From assembly GCA_000992085.1 (NCBI GenBank), contig LBTN01000012.1:1498-65497 (forward strand): a DNA stretch of 64,000 nucleotides, in the 5' to 3' direction. Shown piece by piece: positions 2,601 through 17,721 of the stretch. Positions within the stretch are counted from its first letter, which is position 1, and each line of letters starts with the position of its first letter. This DNA comes from Candidatus Magasanikbacteria bacterium GW2011_GWA2_37_8 (lineage in GTDB: Bacteria > Patescibacteriota > Patescibacteriia > Magasanikbacterales > GWA2-37-8). Position numbers and translations under genes: made by a program. The notes beneath the pieces were generated by a model. That model was not told the DNA's origin. It searched no databases and saw only the letters and a program-made list of their open reading frames with translations.

Positions 2601-3833
2601 TTAAATTTTTACATTAAATACCCCAGTTTTATTGGTATCAGTAAAATATAGTTTATTATTAATACTATCAAAATTAATATTTTTTATAGAGTATTCGTCG
2701 CCCAACGGAACATTAGTTTTGAGCCCGGTTTGTAAATCTATTTTATACAGATCGTCTTTTAAGCCAAGAGCTAATTCGGGAAGCATGCCAGCACCTTGAG
2801 GAAGATTGCGTGGTACAGCACAATACAAAACTTTATCACCGGCAAACGTACATTTATCCGCCCATGTATTAATTGCTAGAGATTGACGGGCAGAACCGAT
2901 ATCATCGCCATAGGCATTTACTACCCAAAGTTCTGGTTTGTAGTCACTTCTGGTGCTAAATACACTATAAAGTAATTTTTGACCAGTAGGTGACCATTGT
3001 GGTTCGAAACCAGCCCCCTCTACAATAGTAGATTTAAAATTTTCACCATTTAAACCAATAAATAAAACTTCACGACGGTCGGCGCCCAAAGCCTGGCCGG
3101 TCATAGAAAAAGCAGCGGTTTGGCGACTAGGCGACCAATCAATAATTACTTTGTCGGCGTTGTTGCCCATTGGTTCGATTAATTTGCTGCCAGTACCGTC
3201 GTCGTTAACAGTAATTAACCAACGACTTTCGGGGGATAGCCCCATGCTTTTGGCTGCGATTTGACTACTGTCGTTTGAGAAGGAAAATTCTTCCCAGTGC
3301 TTAGGTAAAGTTATTTGTTTTTTAGTTTCAAAATTATAAACAATTTTATTGCCATCAGGGTATTCTACAACTGCTTCATCTTTGGTTGGCGCCCAAGTAA
3401 CTTTATCGGCGTTGTAAAAAATTTGATCGGACATTTCTGTTATTGTGCCGTCGCCTGTAACGCGATAAAATTTTCCGTCGGCGGCGTTGTGATACCGCAA
3501 TCCACCGTTTTTATTGGTAGAAGTAAATAGAGCATAGTCGGTAGTAACTTGAGTAACTGGTTTGGCTTGGTAGTAGCTAGGGGTAACTTGAGGTATAGCA
3601 CCAGTTGGGGCGGCTTGTCCACGGACAAGTTCGCCAGCACCAGTGGTGGTGACGATAGGTGCAACCCTTTCACCAGCAGTTGGCAAAGCCCCAGGTGTGG
3701 TGGTTGCTACTGGGCGTGGTTTAAACGCTGTTGGTGTTGTTTTTTGGAATAAATAATACAGCCCAATACCAATTAGGGCAGCGGTGGCGAGTAGCGCACC
3801 GGCGAAAAGATTTTTTTTGAGAGTGGGAGACAT
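2601..3833 (-). CDS. TolB-like beta-propeller (PD40 repeat) protein, membrane anchored
   Basis: 410 aa. N-terminal TM, Pro/Thr-rich linker, repeated PD40-like motifs DWSPSRQTAAF and PQWSPTGQKLLY. Confidence 0.55.
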   Translation of the reverse strand: MSPTLKKNLFAGALLATAALIGIGLYYLFQKTTPTAFKPRPVATTTPGALPTAGERVAPIVTTTGAGELVRGQAAPTGAIPQVTPSYYQAKPVTQVTTDYALFTSTNKNGGLRYHNAADGKFYRVTGDGTITEMSDQIFYNADKVTWAPTKDEAVVEYPDGNKIVYNFETKKQITLPKHWEEFSFSNDSSQIAAKSMGLSPESRWLITVNDDGTGSKLIEPMGNNADKVIIDWSPSRQTAAFSMTGQALGADRREVLFIGLNGENFKSTIVEGAGFEPQWSPTGQKLLYSVFSTRSDYKPELWVVNAYGDDIGSARQSLAINTWADKCTFAGDKVLYCAVPRNLPQGAGMLPELALGLKDDLYKIDLQTGLKTNVPLGDEYSIKNINFDSINNKLYFTDTNKTGVFNVKI

Positions 3834-11551: not shown

Positions 11552-13999
11552 ATGTTATTAAGTTATAATTGGTTAAAACAATATTTAAATTTACCTAGTG
11601 CAGTTACCGTCTTTGACGTAGGAGAGAAATTAAAAATTTCTACAGTAGAGGTAGAAGCTATTAAAAAAATGGGAGAGAACTTAGAAAATATTGTAGTGGG
11701 GAAAGTGATGTCGGCCGATAAACACCCAGACGCAGATAAATTGAAATTATGTAAAGTTGATATTGGCCATGAACAAGTGAAAATTGTTTGTGGTGGATCA
11801 AATGTTGTCGAAGGCATGTTAGTGGCCTTAGCTAAAATCGGAGCAAAAGTGCGGTGGCATGGAGAGGGAGATTTGATTGAGCTGGCGGCAACTAAAATTC
11901 GTGGTATTGAATCATCTGGTATGATTTGCGCTTCAGCCGAAATTGGTTTGGGCGACATGTTCCCAATAAAAGATGAGAAAGAAATTTTAGATTTAACCAA
12001 TTATAATTTTAAAGTAGGCGAACCATTAACCAAAGCTTTAGGTTTGGACGATATTGTTTTAGAAATTGACAATAAATCACTTTCTAATCGTCCAGATTTA
12101 TGGGGACATTACGGTATTGCCCGTGAAGTGGCGGTTTTATTTAATAAAGATTTAGCTGATTATAAGACAGAAGAAATTAAAACAGGTAAAGAATTAAAAG
12201 TAACAGTAGAAGTTTTGGATAAAAAATTATGCCCGCGCTACATGGCCGTGGCGGTAGGTGGGATAAAAGTAGGGCCATCACCAGATTGGTTAAAAAAGAA
12301 GCTGTTAACCGTTGGTATTAACCCAATTAATAATATTGTGGATATTACCAATTATGTAATGTTGGATATTGGGCAACCAATGCACGCTTTTGACGCTGAG
12401 TTAGTTGGTAATGATACAAACACAAAAATTATTACAATTCGTTTAGCGGAAGACAAAGAAAAATTTAAAGCTTTAGATGACAACGAGTACGAATTAACAG
12501 AAAATGATTTGGTAATAGCTGATTCTGAAAAAGTTTTGGCGGTTGCTGGTGTAATCGGCGGGGTATCAAGTGCTATTACCAATAACACCAAGGCGATTAT
12601 TTTTGAATCTGCCAATTTTTTGGCTACCAATATTCGCAAAACCTCAACTAGGCTAGATGTGCGCACCGACTCGGCACAAAGATTTGAAAAAAGTTTAGAT
12701 CCAAATTTATGCGAGCTGGCTTTAAAAAAGGCTGTCGAATTGGTTTGCCAAATTTGTCCAGAGGCAAAAGCAATTAGTAAGGTGGTAGATGAATCCGATT
12801 TTGTTTTGCCGGTTGGACCAATCGAAATTGCTAAAAATTTGTTTGAAAAGAAAATTGGAGCTGTTATTCCAGAAAAAGAAATTGTAAGAATTTTAGAAAA
12901 ATTAGGTTTTGAATTAAAAGATAAAAAAGATGCGTGGTCAGTTAAAATTCCTACTTGGCGTGCCACCAAAGATATTTCTTTAGCCGAAGATTTGGTAGAA
13001 GAAGTCTTGCGAATTTATGGTTATGATAAAATAGTAAGTAGTTTACCTAATTTCCCGATTAACCCGCCGGTGGTTAATAAGTTGCGAAAATTAGAACACC
13101 AGGTAGTAGATATTTTGGTGCAGAAATTTTCTTATAACGAAGTGTATAATTATTCTTTTATTAGCGGTGAACAGATTAAAAATTTGGCCGATGATCCAGC
13201 TTTTTATATCGAATTAGATAATCCGCTAGCCAAAGATAGACCATATTTACGTCGTCAATTGTTGCCTAATTTATTAGCCAATGTCGCTGGTAATATTAGT
13301 CATAGATCCGAAGTAAAGATTTTTGAAATTGGCAAAGTGTTTCGAAATAATAAATCTGGTTTAAGAACAGCAGAAAATAGCGACGAATTACTACCAAATC
13401 AGGACGTGTGGTTTACAGCCGTGTATGTAAGCAAAAAAGAGCAAAATCCATTTTGGGAGGTGCGACGGTTGTTGGAAGCTTTGGGCCAAGAATTAAAATT
13501 TGATTGGGAAACTGTTTTAGAAGAAAAAGTTCCAGTTCGTGAGCACGCGACTCGGACAGCTTTGATTAGGTCAAATATTCCAGTCGGTGTAGTTGGAGAA
13601 GTGGCACCAAAAATATCAGAAAATTTTGGTGTGGATTATCGAGTGGGATTTTTACAATTAAATTTAAGCGATTTGCAGGAATCCGGTAAGTTTAAAGAAA
13701 TTAATTATGTACCCGCTTCTAACTATCCAGAGGTAGAACGCGATGTAGCAATAGTAGTAAATAAAAAATTTACTCATCAAGAAATAGTAAACGAACTTCA
13801 AAAAATTGATCCATTATTAATCAAAGTAGAGTTGTTTGATGTTTATACTGGCGAACATGTCGCCATAGATAAAAAGAGTATGGCTTATCGTCTAACTTAT
13901 TATCACCCCGATCATACTTTAGTTAGTGTCGAAGTAGATACTATTCACAATAAAGTTTTATCTCTGTTGCAAAAAAAGTTTAGCGCCGAGATTCGTTAG
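11552..13999 (+). CDS. pheT: Phenylalanine--tRNA ligase beta subunit
   Basis: 815 aa. N-terminal MLLSYNWLKQYL, tRNA-binding domain (HPDADKLKLCKVD), B3/4, B5 and FDX-ACB-like C-terminus. Confidence 0.95.
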   Translation: MLLSYNWLKQYLNLPSAVTVFDVGEKLKISTVEVEAIKKMGENLENIVVGKVMSADKHPDADKLKLCKVDIGHEQVKIVCGGSNVVEGMLVALAKIGAKVRWHGEGDLIELAATKIRGIESSGMICASAEIGLGDMFPIKDEKEILDLTNYNFKVGEPLTKALGLDDIVLEIDNKSLSNRPDLWGHYGIAREVAVLFNKDLADYKTEEIKTGKELKVTVEVLDKKLCPRYMAVAVGGIKVGPSPDWLKKKLLTVGINPINNIVDITNYVMLDIGQPMHAFDAELVGNDTNTKIITIRLAEDKEKFKALDDNEYELTENDLVIADSEKVLAVAGVIGGVSSAITNNTKAIIFESANFLATNIRKTSTRLDVRTDSAQRFEKSLDPNLCELALKKAVELVCQICPEAKAISKVVDESDFVLPVGPIEIAKNLFEKKIGAVIPEKEIVRILEKLGFELKDKKDAWSVKIPTWRATKDISLAEDLVEEVLRIYGYDKIVSSLPNFPINPPVVNKLRKLEHQVVDILVQKFSYNEVYNYSFISGEQIKNLADDPAFYIELDNPLAKDRPYLRRQLLPNLLANVAGNISHRSEVKIFEIGKVFRNNKSGLRTAENSDELLPNQDVWFTAVYVSKKEQNPFWEVRRLLEALGQELKFDWETVLEEKVPVREHATRTALIRSNIPVGVVGEVAPKISENFGVDYRVGFLQLNLSDLQESGKFKEINYVPASNYPEVERDVAIVVNKKFTHQEIVNELQKIDPLLIKVELFDVYTGEHVAIDKKSMAYRLTYYHPDHTLVSVEVDTIHNKVLSLLQKKFSAEIR

Positions 14000-14593: not shown

Positions 14594-14622
14594 TTGACAG
14601 AAATGTAAATTTGTGCTATAAT
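14594..14622 (+). promoter_or_regulatory. Consensus sigma70-type promoter for the DGR target gene
   Basis: TTGACA (14594-14599), 17-nt spacer, TGc-TATAAT (TATAAT at 14617-14622, extended -10 TG at 14614-14615). Two perfect tandem 11-mers tcagttgttgt (14572-14582, 14583-14593) directly abut the -35. Confidence 0.6.
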
Positions 14623-14655
14623 ACCACGTTCTTTTAAAATTTGGCTAAATTACGA

Positions 14656-14743
14656 GGCAAGCGCTATGAATGTGCTAGTTTTAGTGTGTTTATAGCGCTT
14701 GCCTTACGTAAGGCAGACTGTAACCCGAGCAGTATAAATCGGG
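14656..14743 (+). promoter_or_regulatory. Structured 5' leader of the DGR target mRNA (three hairpins, two mutually exclusive)
   Basis: 12-bp stem ggcaagcgctat/atagcgcttgcc (14656-14667/14692-14703). Perfect 14-nt palindrome gccttacgtaaggc (14701-14714) shares gcc with the first stem. Third stem cccga/tcggg (14724-14728/14739-14743) lies just before the RBS GGAGG (14752-14756). Confidence 0.4.
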
Positions 14744-14762
14744 AGGATTGTGGAGGTGGACG

Positions 14763-15644
14763 ATGACGACTCGAGGGTCGATCACATCCGGTCAGAGTAG
14801 GCGGATTGCGCAGTTCGGTTCCGACGCGGTTGAGGTCGTGCTCGCGGAGCTCGATCTCAGCCAGGATGGTGCGCAGTGCGTAATAGAGCAGAACGGGGAG
14901 GAGTTCTGCGAGGCCATGCGCAACGCCGCACGCGTCGCGCTACGGGTCATGTCCATGCCCAACCAGTTCGCGGACGAGGAGGTCGACTCCAACTTCACCT
15001 ACCCGCCCGAGTACAAGGGCGTGAAGGGGGTCGCGGAGCAGACCAACATCCTGCGGGGGTTATTTCCGGGTCTCGGGTTCGCCGACGAGAAGGTCGTGGC
15101 GCTCCCGCTGCCCAAGCACGCCGAGGGTTGGTTCGCCATCCCGCGGTGGCAGAACATCGCCCCGACCTACGGCGAGGCGGTGGAGAAGGTGTCGGCTCTG
15201 ATCGTGTCCAGGCGGACGTTCTACAACTACCGCCAGGGCAAGCTTGCGGCCAGATACTTGCGCCAGCACGCGCGGACCGAGAAGTTCCTCCGCCAGGTCG
15301 GTGACCAGCAGAAGGATTTTGATATCCTCGTGGTTGCGGCCCAGTTCGGCCTGCGTTTCCGTGGCAAGTCGGTTCGGCGTTCCAGGGTGCTGTTCGAGAA
15401 GAACGAGTACGGTTTGGGTGCATTCGCCATCGGCATCATGCTGTTGACGCACCCCGAGCGACTCGTTCGTTGGGAGCAGCTCCACGTGGACTGCGCGGGC
15501 GACGAGTATTCGGCCGACGGCGATGGCGTCTTCTCCGAGGCGCCCTATTTCTACTTCGACGACGACGAGCTGAGGTTCGGCACGCGCGACTGTTCCAGCT
15601 ACAGCGGCCCTTTCGGGTCGGCGTCCGGCTTCCTCGCGCAGTAG
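14763..15644 (+). CDS. DGR target (variable) protein; unknown N-terminal domain, C-terminal 43 codons are the VR
   Basis: ORF track gives 14748-15644 from a TTG. ATG at 14763 sits 6 nt after GGAGG and is the likelier start. The frame is supported by the TR comparison: all 14 VR/TR differences fall on codon positions 1 or 2 of this frame. GC-rich (58-68% on lines I counted), with GC3-rich codons unlike every neighbour. Confidence 0.8.
   Translation: MTTRGSITSGQSRRIAQFGSDAVEVVLAELDLSQDGAQCVIEQNGEEFCEAMRNAARVALRVMSMPNQFADEEVDSNFTYPPEYKGVKGVAEQTNILRGLFPGLGFADEKVVALPLPKHAEGWFAIPRWQNIAPTYGEAVEKVSALIVSRRTFYNYRQGKLAARYLRQHARTEKFLRQVGDQQKDFDILVVAAQFGLRFRGKSVRRSRVLFEKNEYGLGAFAIGIMLLTHPERLVRWEQLHVDCAGDEYSADGDGVFSEAPYFYFDDDELRFGTRDCSSYSGPFGSASGFLAQ
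15513..15642 (+). repeat. DGR variable region (VR)
   Basis: 130 nt, 116/130 identical to 16231-16360. All 14 mismatches occur where the other copy has A. It ends 2 nt before the end of the target stop codon (TAG 15642-15644). Confidence 0.9.
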
Positions 15645-15849
15645 CCCCTTGGCCACTTGAACACTTGGATCTTTTGACATCTTGTCGCTGGATATTTGAG
15701 TTCATTTCTGCCGTCAGGCAGTCGCCGGCTCTGGGGTATCTGCACGCGTCACGTCTTGCCAGCCAATTCAACAAGGAGGGGTTTCCGGTTCAACCGGAGA
15801 TTCGGCGCCATGCCGAATCAAGGGGTGCGTTTGTTCCTACAAGTGCACC

Positions 15850-15903
15850 TACCCCGTTCAGTTTTCATCTAAAGTAGGTGGAAGTTGAACGGGGTATTTT
15901 TTT
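15850..15903 (+). terminator. Intrinsic terminator of the target transcript
   Basis: 11-bp stem taccccgttca / tgaacggggta (15850-15860 / 15886-15896) followed by T7 (15897-15903). Confidence 0.65.
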
Positions 15904-15911
15904 AACAAAAT

Positions 15912-15941
15912 TATTGCAAACTATTGCAAACTATTGCAATT
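15912..15941 (+). repeat. Three tandem 10-bp repeats tattgcaa(ac/tt), each carrying a TTGCAA -35-like hexamer
   Basis: tattgcaaac (15912-15921), tattgcaaac (15922-15931), tattgcaatt (15932-15941), read directly. Confidence 0.8.
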
Positions 15942-15961
15942 TATTTTATTCCAGATATAAT
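15934..15961 (+). promoter_or_regulatory. Putative promoter of the TR-containing RNA
   Basis: TTGCAA (15934-15939), 16-nt spacer, TATAAT (15956-15961). It lies just after the target terminator and about 270 nt upstream of the TR. Confidence 0.45.
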
Positions 15962-16230
15962 ATTATTCAGTAAGGCTAATGTACGGCAGTCTACTGATCG
16001 CCGTCGCCAAACTTCTCAATCAACCGAGAAAAACAACCAGAGTCTTGGCGATTATTATTTCCAAGAGCGTGTTGTGTTGAGGGGATACTGCTTGTCTTTG
16101 TCTGGTACAGGTCTCCGACGTTTTGTCGTGGGTGCTGTCAAATAAAATTCAGAGCTAAGAGCATATATTTTTGCAGCCAGCGGAAGGTAAAGCTCGAGGT
16201 TTGGTGATAATAGATGGGCAAAGATAATTA

Positions 16231-16360
16231 GCCGACGGCGATGGCGTCTTCTCCAAGGCGCCCTATTTCAACTTCAACGACGACAAGCTGAAGTTCGACA
16301 CGAACGACTGTTCCAACTACAACGACAATTTCGGGTCGGCGTCCGGCTTCCTCGCGAAGT
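16231..16360 (+). repeat. DGR template repeat (TR)
   Basis: Non-coding copy of the VR. It has 30 adenines, including 5 AAC, 1 AAT and 4 AAG codons in the target frame. The 3' 28 nt (tttcgggtcggcgtccggcttcctcgcg) contain no A, are G/C-rich and are identical to the VR, so they are IMH-like. Confidence 0.9.
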
Positions 16361-16375
16361 CTCTCCCCAAATAAC

Positions 16376-16404
16376 AAAGGGTGTTCCGTAATGGAACACC
16401 CTTT
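16376..16404. terminator. 12-bp hairpin 3' of TR; possible bidirectional terminator (TR RNA on +, avd on -) or TR-RNA structural element
   Basis: aaagggtgttcc-gtaat-ggaacacccttt. U-rich sequence follows on both strands. The avd stop codon is at 16422-16424. Confidence 0.5.
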
Positions 16405-16421
16405 CTGTTATCGTTGTTTTT

Positions 16422-16772
16422 TTACGTTGTTTTGCAGGATTTTATCCAACCACCTAGCATGCGGCCGATCTCGTCCACAATATTCTCTAAGGTCACATAC
16501 TTTTTGTTGTCTATAGTCTTAACATCTTTTAGTAATCGAATAAAGACACGCAACATATTTAGTTTTAAACTAACATGTTCCAATGTTGCTACTTTATTTA
16601 ACTTAGATTCAGTGCCAGCTTGGATAACGCCTTCGGTTACGGCCATGACAAAAATTTCACAACGTTCAAAAACAGTATAGCGGTCTTGTTTTGGTACACT
16701 TTTGCGGTATTCGTGTAGAAGCTTATACAATTCGTATGTCTTTTTAAAGATGGGTATATCTAAATCATTCAT
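16422..16772 (-). CDS. avd: DGR accessory variability determinant (Avd-like four-helix-bundle protein)
   Basis: 116 aa, basic, helical. It has SVPKQDRYTVFERCE and the C-terminal EIGRMLGGWIKS motif, which parallels EVGRILGSWI of Bordetella phage bAvd as I recall it. It lies next to the TR and RT. Confidence 0.85.
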   Translation of the reverse strand: MNDLDIPIFKKTYELYKLLHEYRKSVPKQDRYTVFERCEIFVMAVTEGVIQAGTESKLNKVATLEHVSLKLNMLRVFIRLLKDVKTIDNKKYVTLENIVDEIGRMLGGWIKSCKTT

Positions 16773-16777
16773 ATGAT

Positions 16778-17029
16778 ATGAAAGTTATTAATAATATATA
16801 TGGCAGGATCGTTTCTCTGGAAAATTTGGTAATGGCTTGGGATGAATTTAAGGTTGGCAAAACTCAAAAGGAGGATGTGACGGAATTTGAATTTTTCTTG
16901 GAGCAAAATTTATTTGCTTTGCATGAAGAATTAAAAACCAAAAAATATCGCCATGGGCTATATACCTCATTTTACATTCGCGATCCAAAGGTTCGCCATA
17001 TTCATAAAGCCACAGTGAAGGAATTTTAG
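16778..17029 (+). CDS. DGR reverse transcriptase, N-terminal fragment (ends at an in-frame TAG)
   Basis: 83 aa. SLENLVMAWDEF...LHEELKTKKYRHGLYTSFYIRDPKVRHIHKATVKEF aligns with the Brt N-terminus (WENLLDAY...YEPKPRLISALEFKDR, from memory). The frame stops where motif 1 (K-D-R) is expected. Confidence 0.8.
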   Translation: MKVINNIYGRIVSLENLVMAWDEFKVGKTQKEDVTEFEFFLEQNLFALHEELKTKKYRHGLYTSFYIRDPKVRHIHKATVKEF

Positions 17030-17040
17030 CCTTAGAGACA

Positions 17041-17721
17041 ATGATCCGCCAAGTTAGCCATAACTATACCAAGCAGTGTTATGTCTTAAAATGTGATGTG
17101 CGCAAATTTTTTGATTCCATTGACCACGGCGTATTATTAGAAATGCTCTCCAAAAAAATTATTGATCGGAATACCAATTGGTTGTTGGAGCGAATAATCC
17201 AAAGTTTTGCCGTTGGCTACACAACTTTGTTTGAACGGCAGGGTGTGCCTATTGGTAATCTTACCTCCCAATTATTCGCTAATGTTTATATGAATGAATT
17301 TGACCAATATGTGAAGCATAAATTAAAAGTTAAACATTACGCGCGCTACACCGACGACTTTATGATTGTGGCAAACGACAGACAATATTTAGTTGATTTA
17401 CTTTTTCCTATCCGCGAATTTTTACAGAATCGTCTGAAGTTGATTTTGCATCCCAAAAAAGTATCTTTGCGTAAATATCGCCAAGGTGCAGATTTTTTAG
17501 GGTCTGTGATTTTACCACAATATCGGCTTTTGCGAAACAAAACAAAACGTCGTATTTTTCGTAAATTACAGTGTCGAGTAAAAGAATTTAAAGAGAATAA
17601 AATTGATGAAATACGGTTAGAACAATCCTTACAATCTTATTTGGGTGTATTATCGCATACTAATGCCTATCATTTGAGTGACGAGATAAAGAACCAGTTT
17701 TGGTTTTGGTTGGGAGAGTAA
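17041..17721 (+). CDS. DGR reverse transcriptase, C-terminal fragment (palm/thumb motifs 3-7), in a different frame from the N-terminal fragment
   Basis: 226 aa. YVLKCDVRKFFDSIDH (motif 3/A), GVPIGNLTSQLFANVYMNEFD (DGR-specific xGxxxSQ motif 4), YARYTDDFMIV (YxDD, motif 5/C), LHPKKVSL...ADFLGSVI (motifs 6-7). Confidence 0.9.
   Translation: MIRQVSHNYTKQCYVLKCDVRKFFDSIDHGVLLEMLSKKIIDRNTNWLLERIIQSFAVGYTTLFERQGVPIGNLTSQLFANVYMNEFDQYVKHKLKVKHYARYTDDFMIVANDRQYLVDLLFPIREFLQNRLKLILHPKKVSLRKYRQGADFLGSVILPQYRLLRNKTKRRIFRKLQCRVKEFKENKIDEIRLEQSLQSYLGVLSHTNAYHLSDEIKNQFWFWLGE

Follow-up and report, generated by a model that had tools for sequence, protein, structure and literature searches.

The DNA analysed here (the window) is a stretch of 64,000 nucleotides (nt) of Candidatus Magasanikbacteria bacterium GW2011_GWA2_37_8, contig US58_C0012. 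It carries a chromosomal diversity-generating retroelement (DGR) of the type found in Patescibacteria, the candidate phyla radiation (CPR). The element begins with a target gene that ends in the variable repeat (VR) and is closed by a terminator. A second promoter follows, with a leader of about 270 nt, the template repeat (TR) and a hairpin, and then come the accessory gene avd on the minus strand and the reverse transcriptase (RT) gene on the plus strand (Table 1). All of these features had been listed in an initial annotation of this DNA, and all of them were found in the sequence. The gene order is already catalogued for other elements. The new part is a structured RNA that lies 5' of the TR and is tied to it.

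The comparison of the two repeats identified the element as a DGR. All 14 mismatches between TR and VR were located at TR adenines, and all of them fell in codon position 1 or 2, which is the adenine-specific pattern of a DGR. At the 3' end, the GC-rich GGGTCGGCGTCCGGCTTCCTCGCG was the same in both repeats and was followed by a fixed difference (GAAGU in the TR, GCAGU in the VR), after which the two sequences diverged. This arrangement corresponds to the initiation of mutagenic homing sequence (IMH) of the VR and its counterpart in the TR (IMH*). The avd product matched the bAvd family PF22296 with 65.2 bits, against a cut-off of 40.

An RT alignment was used to scan one genome per species, and 81 non-redundant loci were obtained. 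Three sibling assemblies of the same locus were also compared, L001 from ENA, L002 from JGI and L003 from Logan. Apart from a deletion in the RT gene described below, the window was 100% identical to them over a shared region of up to 9 kb, with one base off in L001. This sole difference lies at 13553, in pheT. L003 overlaps the window only from the TR onward and does not reach the VR. Promoters and terminators were searched with a consensus scan and a terminator scan, and Rfam was compared by covariance models and small-window scans.

The avd gene was found on the minus strand immediately upstream of the RT gene in at least 72 of the 81 species-level loci. In the window, the TR, the reverse-strand avd and the RT follow one another without any other accessory gene. 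This is Architecture B3, TR-(avd)-RT with avd on the reverse strand, which is reported for 90% of CPR DGRs in the available text of Wu et al. (2018, NAR 46:11, PMC5758913). The clade of CPR DGRs is clade 2 of Roux et al. 2021 (PMC8144416). Order, orientation, the Patescibacterium host and the domain-less target are all the same, and no gene-order difference was observed. The initial annotation had called this wiring non-canonical, and had said that the claim would fall if the architecture proved to be common and already characterised. Our results showed that it is a catalogued class and the norm of the survey. A promoter, a structured 5' RNA, a shared hairpin and start-codon gaps of at most 21 nt are not described in the available text of these gene-order surveys (Wu et al. 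2018; Roux et al. 2021).

An inversion of avd introduced by assembly, against which the initial annotation had advised a check, was ruled out. The same avd(-)/RT(+) junction is present in the ENA, JGI and Logan assemblies and in at least 72 survey loci. The start codons of the two genes are separated by 5 nt (16773-16777), which confirmed the spacing given before. In 39 loci with reliable starts, the start-to-start gap had a median of 3 nt and ranged from -15 to +17, with an overlapping CATG in six loci and a gap of 0 in nine. The TR shares its strand with the RT, and a median of 48 nt lies between its end and the avd stop across the loci (61 nt here); the distance from the VR end to the TR start has a median of 372 nt (588 nt here). 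The initial annotation had also pointed out that neither gene has a Shine-Dalgarno sequence. An argument from this absence carries no weight because only 5 of the 50 open reading frames (ORFs) of at least 120 amino acids (aa) in the window have such a motif, so that lacking one is the norm of this genome.

Table 1. Features of the DGR locus, with positions counted from the first nucleotide of the window
Feature	Position	Strand	Basis
Target-gene promoter-like site, TTGACA-17-TATAAT with TG	14594..14622	+	12/12 consensus matches
DGR target gene, 293 aa from an ATG preceded by GGAGG	14763..15644	+	ORF list
VR, C-terminal end of the target gene	15513..15642	+	130-nt TR match, 14 mismatches
VR 3' boundary (IMH-like), GCAGTAGCCCC	15638..15648	+	complementary to leader 16081-16091 at 10/11 positions
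Post-VR YTTG array, five motifs spaced 8-9 nt (sixth at 15695)	15648..15685	+	absent after the TR
Intrinsic-terminator-like hairpin + T7, end of the target transcription unit	15850..15903	+	terminator scan
Tandem repeat, 3.2 copies of 10-nt AAACTATTGC, overlapping the -35 box	15908..15939	+	Tandem Repeats Finder score 57
TR RNA promoter, TTGCAA-16-TATAAT	15934..15961	+	consensus scan, 10/12 matches
Structured 5' domain of the DGR RNA, helices H1-H9	15967..16229	+	covariance model R1, 202.9 bits, E = 5e-66
Guide/primer-strand candidate: strand a (16077-16085) + pentamer ACUGC (16087-16091)	16077..16091	+	cognate-specific pairing
3' sub-domain closed by 12-bp helix H5 (16092-16103 with 16216-16227)	16092..16227	+	compensatory changes in 10/12 H5 pairs
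TR	16231..16360	+	130 nt, aligned to VR 15513-15642
TR 3' flank (IMH*-like): GAAGU + strand a' (16362-16370)	16356..16370	+	pairs with 16077-16091
12-bp hairpin (16376-16404) + T-rich tail	16376..16421	.	terminator score on the minus strand only
avd, 116 aa	16422..16772	-	Pfam PF22296 bAvd, E = 9e-18; identical to KKQ40808.1
DGR RT gene, disrupted by frameshift	16778..17721	+	106-nt deletion between 17017 and 17018

The leader was analysed across the survey loci. When the single sequence 15904-16230 was used as an nhmmer query, about 40 loci were matched whose RTs are only 50-65% identical to that of the window, and the iterated search gave 64 matches. Apart from a few rearranged or partial ones, the matches are on the RT strand and immediately precede the TR on its 5' side. 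Pair statistics were taken from a plain MAFFT alignment of 38 loci that was fitted to no structure, with an RNAalifold consensus. This consensus contained 57 pairs in nine helices, and changes on both sides were observed in 51 of the 57. Paired cells reached 93.9%, versus 39-50% when the partners were slid by 1-3 columns. The covariation score was 0.751, versus 0.11-0.17 for the slid controls, and none of 500 shuffles reached it.

The covariance model R1 found a single copy in the window. It found one copy per locus in 73 of 80 loci, including loci outside model building, and its matches are always on the TR strand and immediately 5' of the TR, even in the rearranged loci L056 and L065 (L056 has a second weak partial match). 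TR/VR homology starts at a median of 0 nt after the end of the model, and between -2 and +3 nt from it in 42 of 53 loci. These results indicate that the sequence between promoter and TR is a conserved folded RNA rather than a passive leader. Judged from its arrangement, the 3' sub-domain closed by H5 is a candidate analogue of the cPRT-Stop duplex and the RT-binding elements of the phage RNA considered below.

The leader is also complementary to sequences at the ends of the two repeats. Among 29 loci, duplexes of leader 16076-16089 with the TR flank had -10.8 kcal/mol for cognate partners versus -7.9 kcal/mol for non-cognate ones (p < 1e-4), and in a scan of the leader this segment alone, out of 36, reached a permutation p < 0.01. 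The mismatches in the pairing of 16077-16091 with the TR flank include G16090/A16357, which is the fixed TR/VR difference. The pentamer of the leader perfectly complements the VR boundary in 47 of 73 TR/VR pairs, versus the TR in 8 of 73, and the TR is off by exactly one nucleotide in 38 of the 47 cases of a perfect VR match. Nine co-varying types of the pentamer were observed, together with a compensated insertion in L024 and complementary runs of up to 11 nt. In the window, GGGGAUACUGC (16081-16091) complements 10 of the 11 positions of the VR boundary, and the TR adds a mismatch at 16357. The anatomy of the RNA, its conservation, its covariation and these complementarities are secure.

The ends of the TR transcription unit were compared in the same way. 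An extended -10 box is conserved just upstream of the RNA in the 38-locus alignment. Its position relative to the RNA is fixed in 34 of 46 loci, and TATAAT is matched at five or more of six positions in 42 of 46. On the other side of the TR, a hairpin with a free energy (dG) of -14 kcal/mol or stronger was predicted in about 40 of 53 loci, and the median of all 53 was -19.6 kcal/mol. The sequences of these hairpins are unrelated, and in many of them an A-tract precedes and a U-tract follows the stem. On the plus strand of the window, the T-run begins a few nt past the extended stem of the hairpin 16376-16404. The segment 16376-16421 probably terminates both the TR RNA (+) and avd (-), which converge on it. 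By analogy of position, the hairpin is also a possible analogue of the Avd-binding stem-loop.

The conserved position of the -10 box, the leader of about 270 nt and the strong post-TR hairpin in most loci supported the proposal of the initial annotation that the TR has an independent transcription unit. Consistently, the leader-TR/avd module of L056 (1018-1810) is inverted and lies 2.6 kb from the RT, and avd, leader and TR of L065 (3282-4015) run colinearly on the strand that does not carry the RT. In both loci the RNA has remained with the TR, and transcription of the TR unit is thus independent of the RT; by the same token, the RT is not a read-through product there.

The AAACTATTGC repeat in front of the TR promoter contains three TTGCAA hexamers one helical turn apart, of which the last is the -35 box. 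It was not seen in the compared promoter regions of other loci, and it may represent an operator or a duplicated promoter.

Taken together, the element is probably a clade-standard CPR DGR with an autonomous RNA gene, whose leader is the counterpart of the spacer (Sp) RNA in the DGR of Bordetella phage. The locus would then be organised in four units. The first would be the target messenger RNA (mRNA) with its own promoter and terminator. The second would be a non-coding gene for the DGR RNA, autonomous and about 450 nt long, made up of the promoter 15934-15961, the 5' domain, the TR, its 3' flank and the hairpin/terminator 16376-16421. The third would be the minus-strand avd, converging on this hairpin, and the fourth the RT, which points away from avd, the two start codons being 5 nt apart. 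The predicted order within the RNA is H1-H4, the guide/primer strand, the 5' strand of H5, the H6 stem-loop, the A-rich single strand AAAUAAAAUUCAG, H7-H8-H9, the 3' strand of H5, the TR, the primer-binding flank and the hairpin.

In the phage RNA, the order is a stop strand upstream of the TR, the TR, a primer-binding site, an Avd-binding stem-loop, the primer (Sp53-56), a stop strand (Sp59-70), a small stem-loop followed by adenosines, a thumb ring and a long stem, interrupted by two interior loops, that binds the RT (Handa et al., bioRxiv 10.1101/2023.10.23.563531). The leader would serve as the functional counterpart of this phage spacer, placed 5' of the TR. Its guide/primer strand 16077-16091 would pair with the TR 3' flank, and the next segment would form H5 with the sequence abutting the TR 5' boundary, resembling the phage stop duplex. 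H6, the conserved A-rich single strand and the interrupted stem H7-H9 would stand in the places of the phage stop stem-loop, thumb ring and RT-binding stem. The hairpin behind the TR would take the place of the Avd-binding stem-loop and would also end the RNA. For a one-to-one functional mapping of this kind, which is argued by analogy, we consider the chances about even.

A more specific proposal is made tentatively, with slightly less than even confidence. The CPR DGR RNA may be a circular permutation of the phage RNA, in which the leader guide, with one mismatch to IMH* and a perfect match to IMH, registers the complementary DNA (cDNA) on the target by RNA-DNA pairing. This would explain the one-way flow from TR to VR, and the YTTG array behind the VR would be a second mark of the recipient. 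Circular permutation would also account for the possible inversion of avd and for a TR that need not be contiguous with the RT.

Several points weigh against this explanation. In most loci, the TR promoter has a weak -35 box. The hairpin 16376-16404 qualifies as a terminator on the minus strand only, and five or more T within 10 nt past the outermost predicted pair were found in just 17 of 53 loci, so that some read-through is possible. No promoter was located for avd or the RT. The transcription start site (TSS), the 3' end, the priming site and the protein contacts, and with them the stop function, are all inferred. Order and topology are the basis for mapping the RNA onto that of the phage; no homology was detected by sequence or covariance model, and nothing in the phage RNA corresponds to H1-H4. 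Handa et al. (bioRxiv 10.1101/2023.10.23.563531) report that elements resembling those of Bordetella lie close to the TR in CPR DGRs, within 40 nt on the upstream and 100 nt on the downstream side, and these could be enough even if the 5' domain played no part. Finally, the VR is unchanged among the assemblies and gives no direct sign of current activity.

The RT gene is split in this record, which the initial annotation had missed. In the window, the RT consists of an 83-aa part (16778-17029) and a 226-aa part (17041-17721), which the public record holds as separate proteins (KKQ40809.1 and KKQ40810.1). Compared with L001-L003, a clean deletion of 106 nt has removed RDRVLHHA...GKGTHK, which contains RT motifs 1-2, and has shifted the frame. 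There is no obvious microhomology at the junction 17017/17018. The RVT_1 match in Pfam (E = 1.6e-18) starts at profile position 55. The closest homolog is P0001, the intact 349-aa RT of the sibling assemblies, whose C-terminal part matches with 100% identity, and Patescibacteria have hundreds of homologs of 349 aa. As read from this record, the RT is inactivated by the deletion, which may be a true variant or an assembly error.

It is possible, and on balance rather doubtful, that the whole element here is a decaying remnant with a true RT pseudogene, so that its features reflect ancestry only. The frameshifting loss of motifs 1-2 in the public record fits this explanation, as does the absence of VR polymorphism, the VR being identical in the window, L001 and L002. 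However, three near-identical assemblies carry the intact 349-aa RT, which means that the deletion is very recent, a minority variant, or an error of assembly or curation. All other parts of the element are intact, and the TR/VR differences are purely adenine-specific. Decay would moreover concern activity in one strain and does not compete with the identity of the system.

The leader could instead be a cis-regulatory 5' untranslated region (UTR), a riboswitch or attenuator that tunes the abundance of the TR RNA and stays outside the RT ribonucleoprotein. The mechanistic work would then be done by the TR-proximal elements, that is, the 40 nt upstream and the downstream hairpin. In favour of this, the leader is structured and conserved and lies between a promoter and the functional RNA, and Bordetella-like stem-loops and up/down duplexes have been seen near the TR in CPR DGRs (Handa et al., bioRxiv 10.1101/2023.10.23.563531). 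However, the roughly 48 nt between the TR and the avd stop are mostly hairpin and leave no room for equivalents of the primer, the thumb ring and the RT-binding stem. Covariation links the leader to both the TR 3' flank and the VR boundary, which would be needless for a ligand sensor. H5 adjoins the TR boundary, and no expression platform was identified. We therefore regard a purely regulatory leader as improbable.

The initial annotation had raised a further model, in which the RT is translated from read-through of the TR promoter, and the resulting RNA, antisense to the avd mRNA, sets the Avd:RT ratio or supplies the spacer function. The two start codons 5 nt apart without a dedicated promoter pinned down would agree with it, as would a post-TR hairpin that is not scored as a plus-strand terminator and a TR on the same strand as the RT in most loci. 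Against it, the hairpin separates the TR from avd in most of the 53 loci, with the stabilities and the A-tract/U-tract flanks given above. The antisense-avd strand has no conserved structure: RNAalifold found 0 consensus pairs in 27 loci. Past roughly codon 8, avd shows no synonymous constraint. L056 and L065 have a TR unit that is inverted or displaced with respect to the RT, and both keep the RNA. A functional spacer of the Bordetella type was not found 3' of the TR, where 61 nt lead to the avd stop and the antisense-avd sequence shows no consensus pairs. This model is accordingly given very little probability. The more general suggestion of an RNA organisation different from the Bordetella phage paradigm was borne out, in the form of a folded RNA 5' of the TR.

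The promoters of avd and the RT were also searched for. When -10 boxes were tried at fixed positions, including a leaderless model, no positional peak rose above the AT-rich background, and a synonymous-site analysis showed a mild AT bias in the first 8 or so codons only. The plus-strand promoter TTGCGG-18-TACAAT (16702-16731), which had been suggested inside avd, failed the consensus scan, and the codons there have no synonymous constraint in 38 loci.

Coding as the source of leader conservation is a negligible prospect: a plus-strand ORF for a 73-aa protein is present (15924-16145), but its TTG start lies upstream of the predicted TSS, the helix changes are paired and compensatory rather than codon-periodic, and the abundant alignment indels are not multiples of three.

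The target gene has features of its own. The target protein had no Pfam match, and its family comprises more than 2500 homologs of about 290 aa, of which the named ones are from Patescibacteria. The AlphaFold2 model had a mean predicted local distance difference test (pLDDT) of 53, mostly below 40 in the VR region, which was too low for a fold search that could place the VR in a C-type-lectin (CLec) or Ig fold. The genome has about 35% GC, and the GC profile showed an island of 58-67% (14740-15850) that holds the target gene. In 50 loci, the non-VR part of the target averaged 52% GC versus 39% for the adjacent RT, with a median excess of 13.5 points; the excess in the window, 27 points, was the largest of the 50. 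Recent horizontal transfer was considered for the GC-rich target and is disfavoured, given the more than 2500 homologs, the Patescibacterial origin of the named ones and the family-wide GC excess.

The target-gene promoter-like site is followed by a 5' UTR of about 135 nt with a long hairpin. A near-perfect stem of more than 20 pairs lies around 14650-14710 within this UTR (14629-14762), which has weak nhmmer similarity (E about 1e-3) to sequences upstream of the target genes in L004 and L009. The GGAGG Shine-Dalgarno sequence of the target (14742-14762) is strong. In L001 and L002 the gene calls replace the 293-aa target by a 142-aa ORF in another frame (14876-15304 in the window, 2099-2527 in L001/L002), and the exact 293-aa match (P0244) came from the JGI source only.

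Behind the VR, the YTTG motif occurred on average 4.0 times per 70 nt after 72 VRs, versus 1.1 after TRs and 1.1 in shuffles, with a spacing of 7-9 nt (mode 8) across related loci. By analogy with the hairpin downstream of the IMH in Bordetella phage, the array may mark the recipient site. A hairpin and T-run equivalent to the terminator of the target unit was found just upstream of the TR promoter in many other loci. Between the array and this terminator, the window has an extra GC-rich spacer of about 150 nt (15700-15849) that has no counterpart in the other loci and for which the homolog search found nothing.

Some of the related loci combine two or three VRs, on multiple targets, with a single TR (L007, L023, L024, L027, L034, L037, L047 and L077). 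The target is on the opposite strand in L004, L005, L006, L013, L028 and L058, and downstream of the RT in L046, L051 and L061.

The structured 5' domain was compared with known RNA families. Nothing reached the gathering level of any Rfam family in the window or in 18 loci, and RT-10 had no match. Two weak alignments were observed. Positions 1-43 of RT-7 (RF03028) align to the H3-H4 module (16036-16102) with 23.1 bits, versus a gathering threshold of 116.8, and share with it CCAGAGU-hairpin-AGnGUG. RT-16 (RF03019) aligns over its full length to the 3' domain of the L017 leader (3284-3477) with 21.7 bits, versus a threshold of 50, and shares with it a long-range helix, AUAAAAUnCAG and GGUGA. 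Membership in either family was rejected, both scores being far below gathering. In the available text of Weinberg et al. 2017 (PMC5737381), RT-7 and RT-16 belong to the candidate structured RNAs from the neighbourhood of RT genes. A link to a DGR is given there for RT-10 alone, and neither RT-7 nor RT-16 is assigned a function. The sequence resemblance suggests that RT-7 and RT-16 may be DGR RNAs of related clades.

The proposed RNA is also reminiscent of retrons, as an analogy only. Retron non-coding RNA consists of msr-msd with a1/a2 inverted repeats. As in a retron, a structured RNA lies 5' of the template, and an inverted repeat joins a 5' segment to the template 3' end, with a potential priming nucleotide adjacent. 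Unlike in a retron, the RT belongs to a different clade, Avd is required, mutagenesis is directed at adenines and the product homes to the VR. To our knowledge, no multicopy single-stranded DNA (msDNA) is known for DGRs.

The covariation gives predictions at the level of base pairs for the priming and stop sites of the cDNA. It also bears on how the TR boundary is defined and how the VR is selected as recipient and the TR left untouched (IMH versus IMH*). For engineering DGR-based mutagenesis, an RNA gene that is compact and autonomous, and whose target boundary is specified by RNA, would be of use.

The closest comparison is with the DGR RNA of Bordetella phage BPP-1, which is composed of the avd 3' end, the TR and Sp (Handa et al. 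2018, PMC6182149). A permuted DGR RNA was not found described in the literature searched, which did not cover Paul et al. 2017, and the later study of Handa et al. (bioRxiv 10.1101/2023.10.23.563531) was confined to the 40 nt upstream of the TR and the 100 nt downstream. As in BPP-1, RNA structure brackets the TR. Directly after a strand with complementarity to the TR 3' end comes one that pairs with the sequence just upstream of the TR, then a stem-loop, an A-rich single-stranded segment and a long stem with interruptions. Immediately 3' of the TR there is a stem-loop as well. Unlike in BPP-1, the non-template elements lie 5' of the TR and not 3' of it, as in a circular permutation, an extra 5' sub-domain H1-H4 is present, and avd is neither upstream nor colinear. 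In conclusion, CPR bacteria are the largest natural reservoir of DGRs, and the RNA used by their RT appears to be built unlike that of the only element studied mechanistically.

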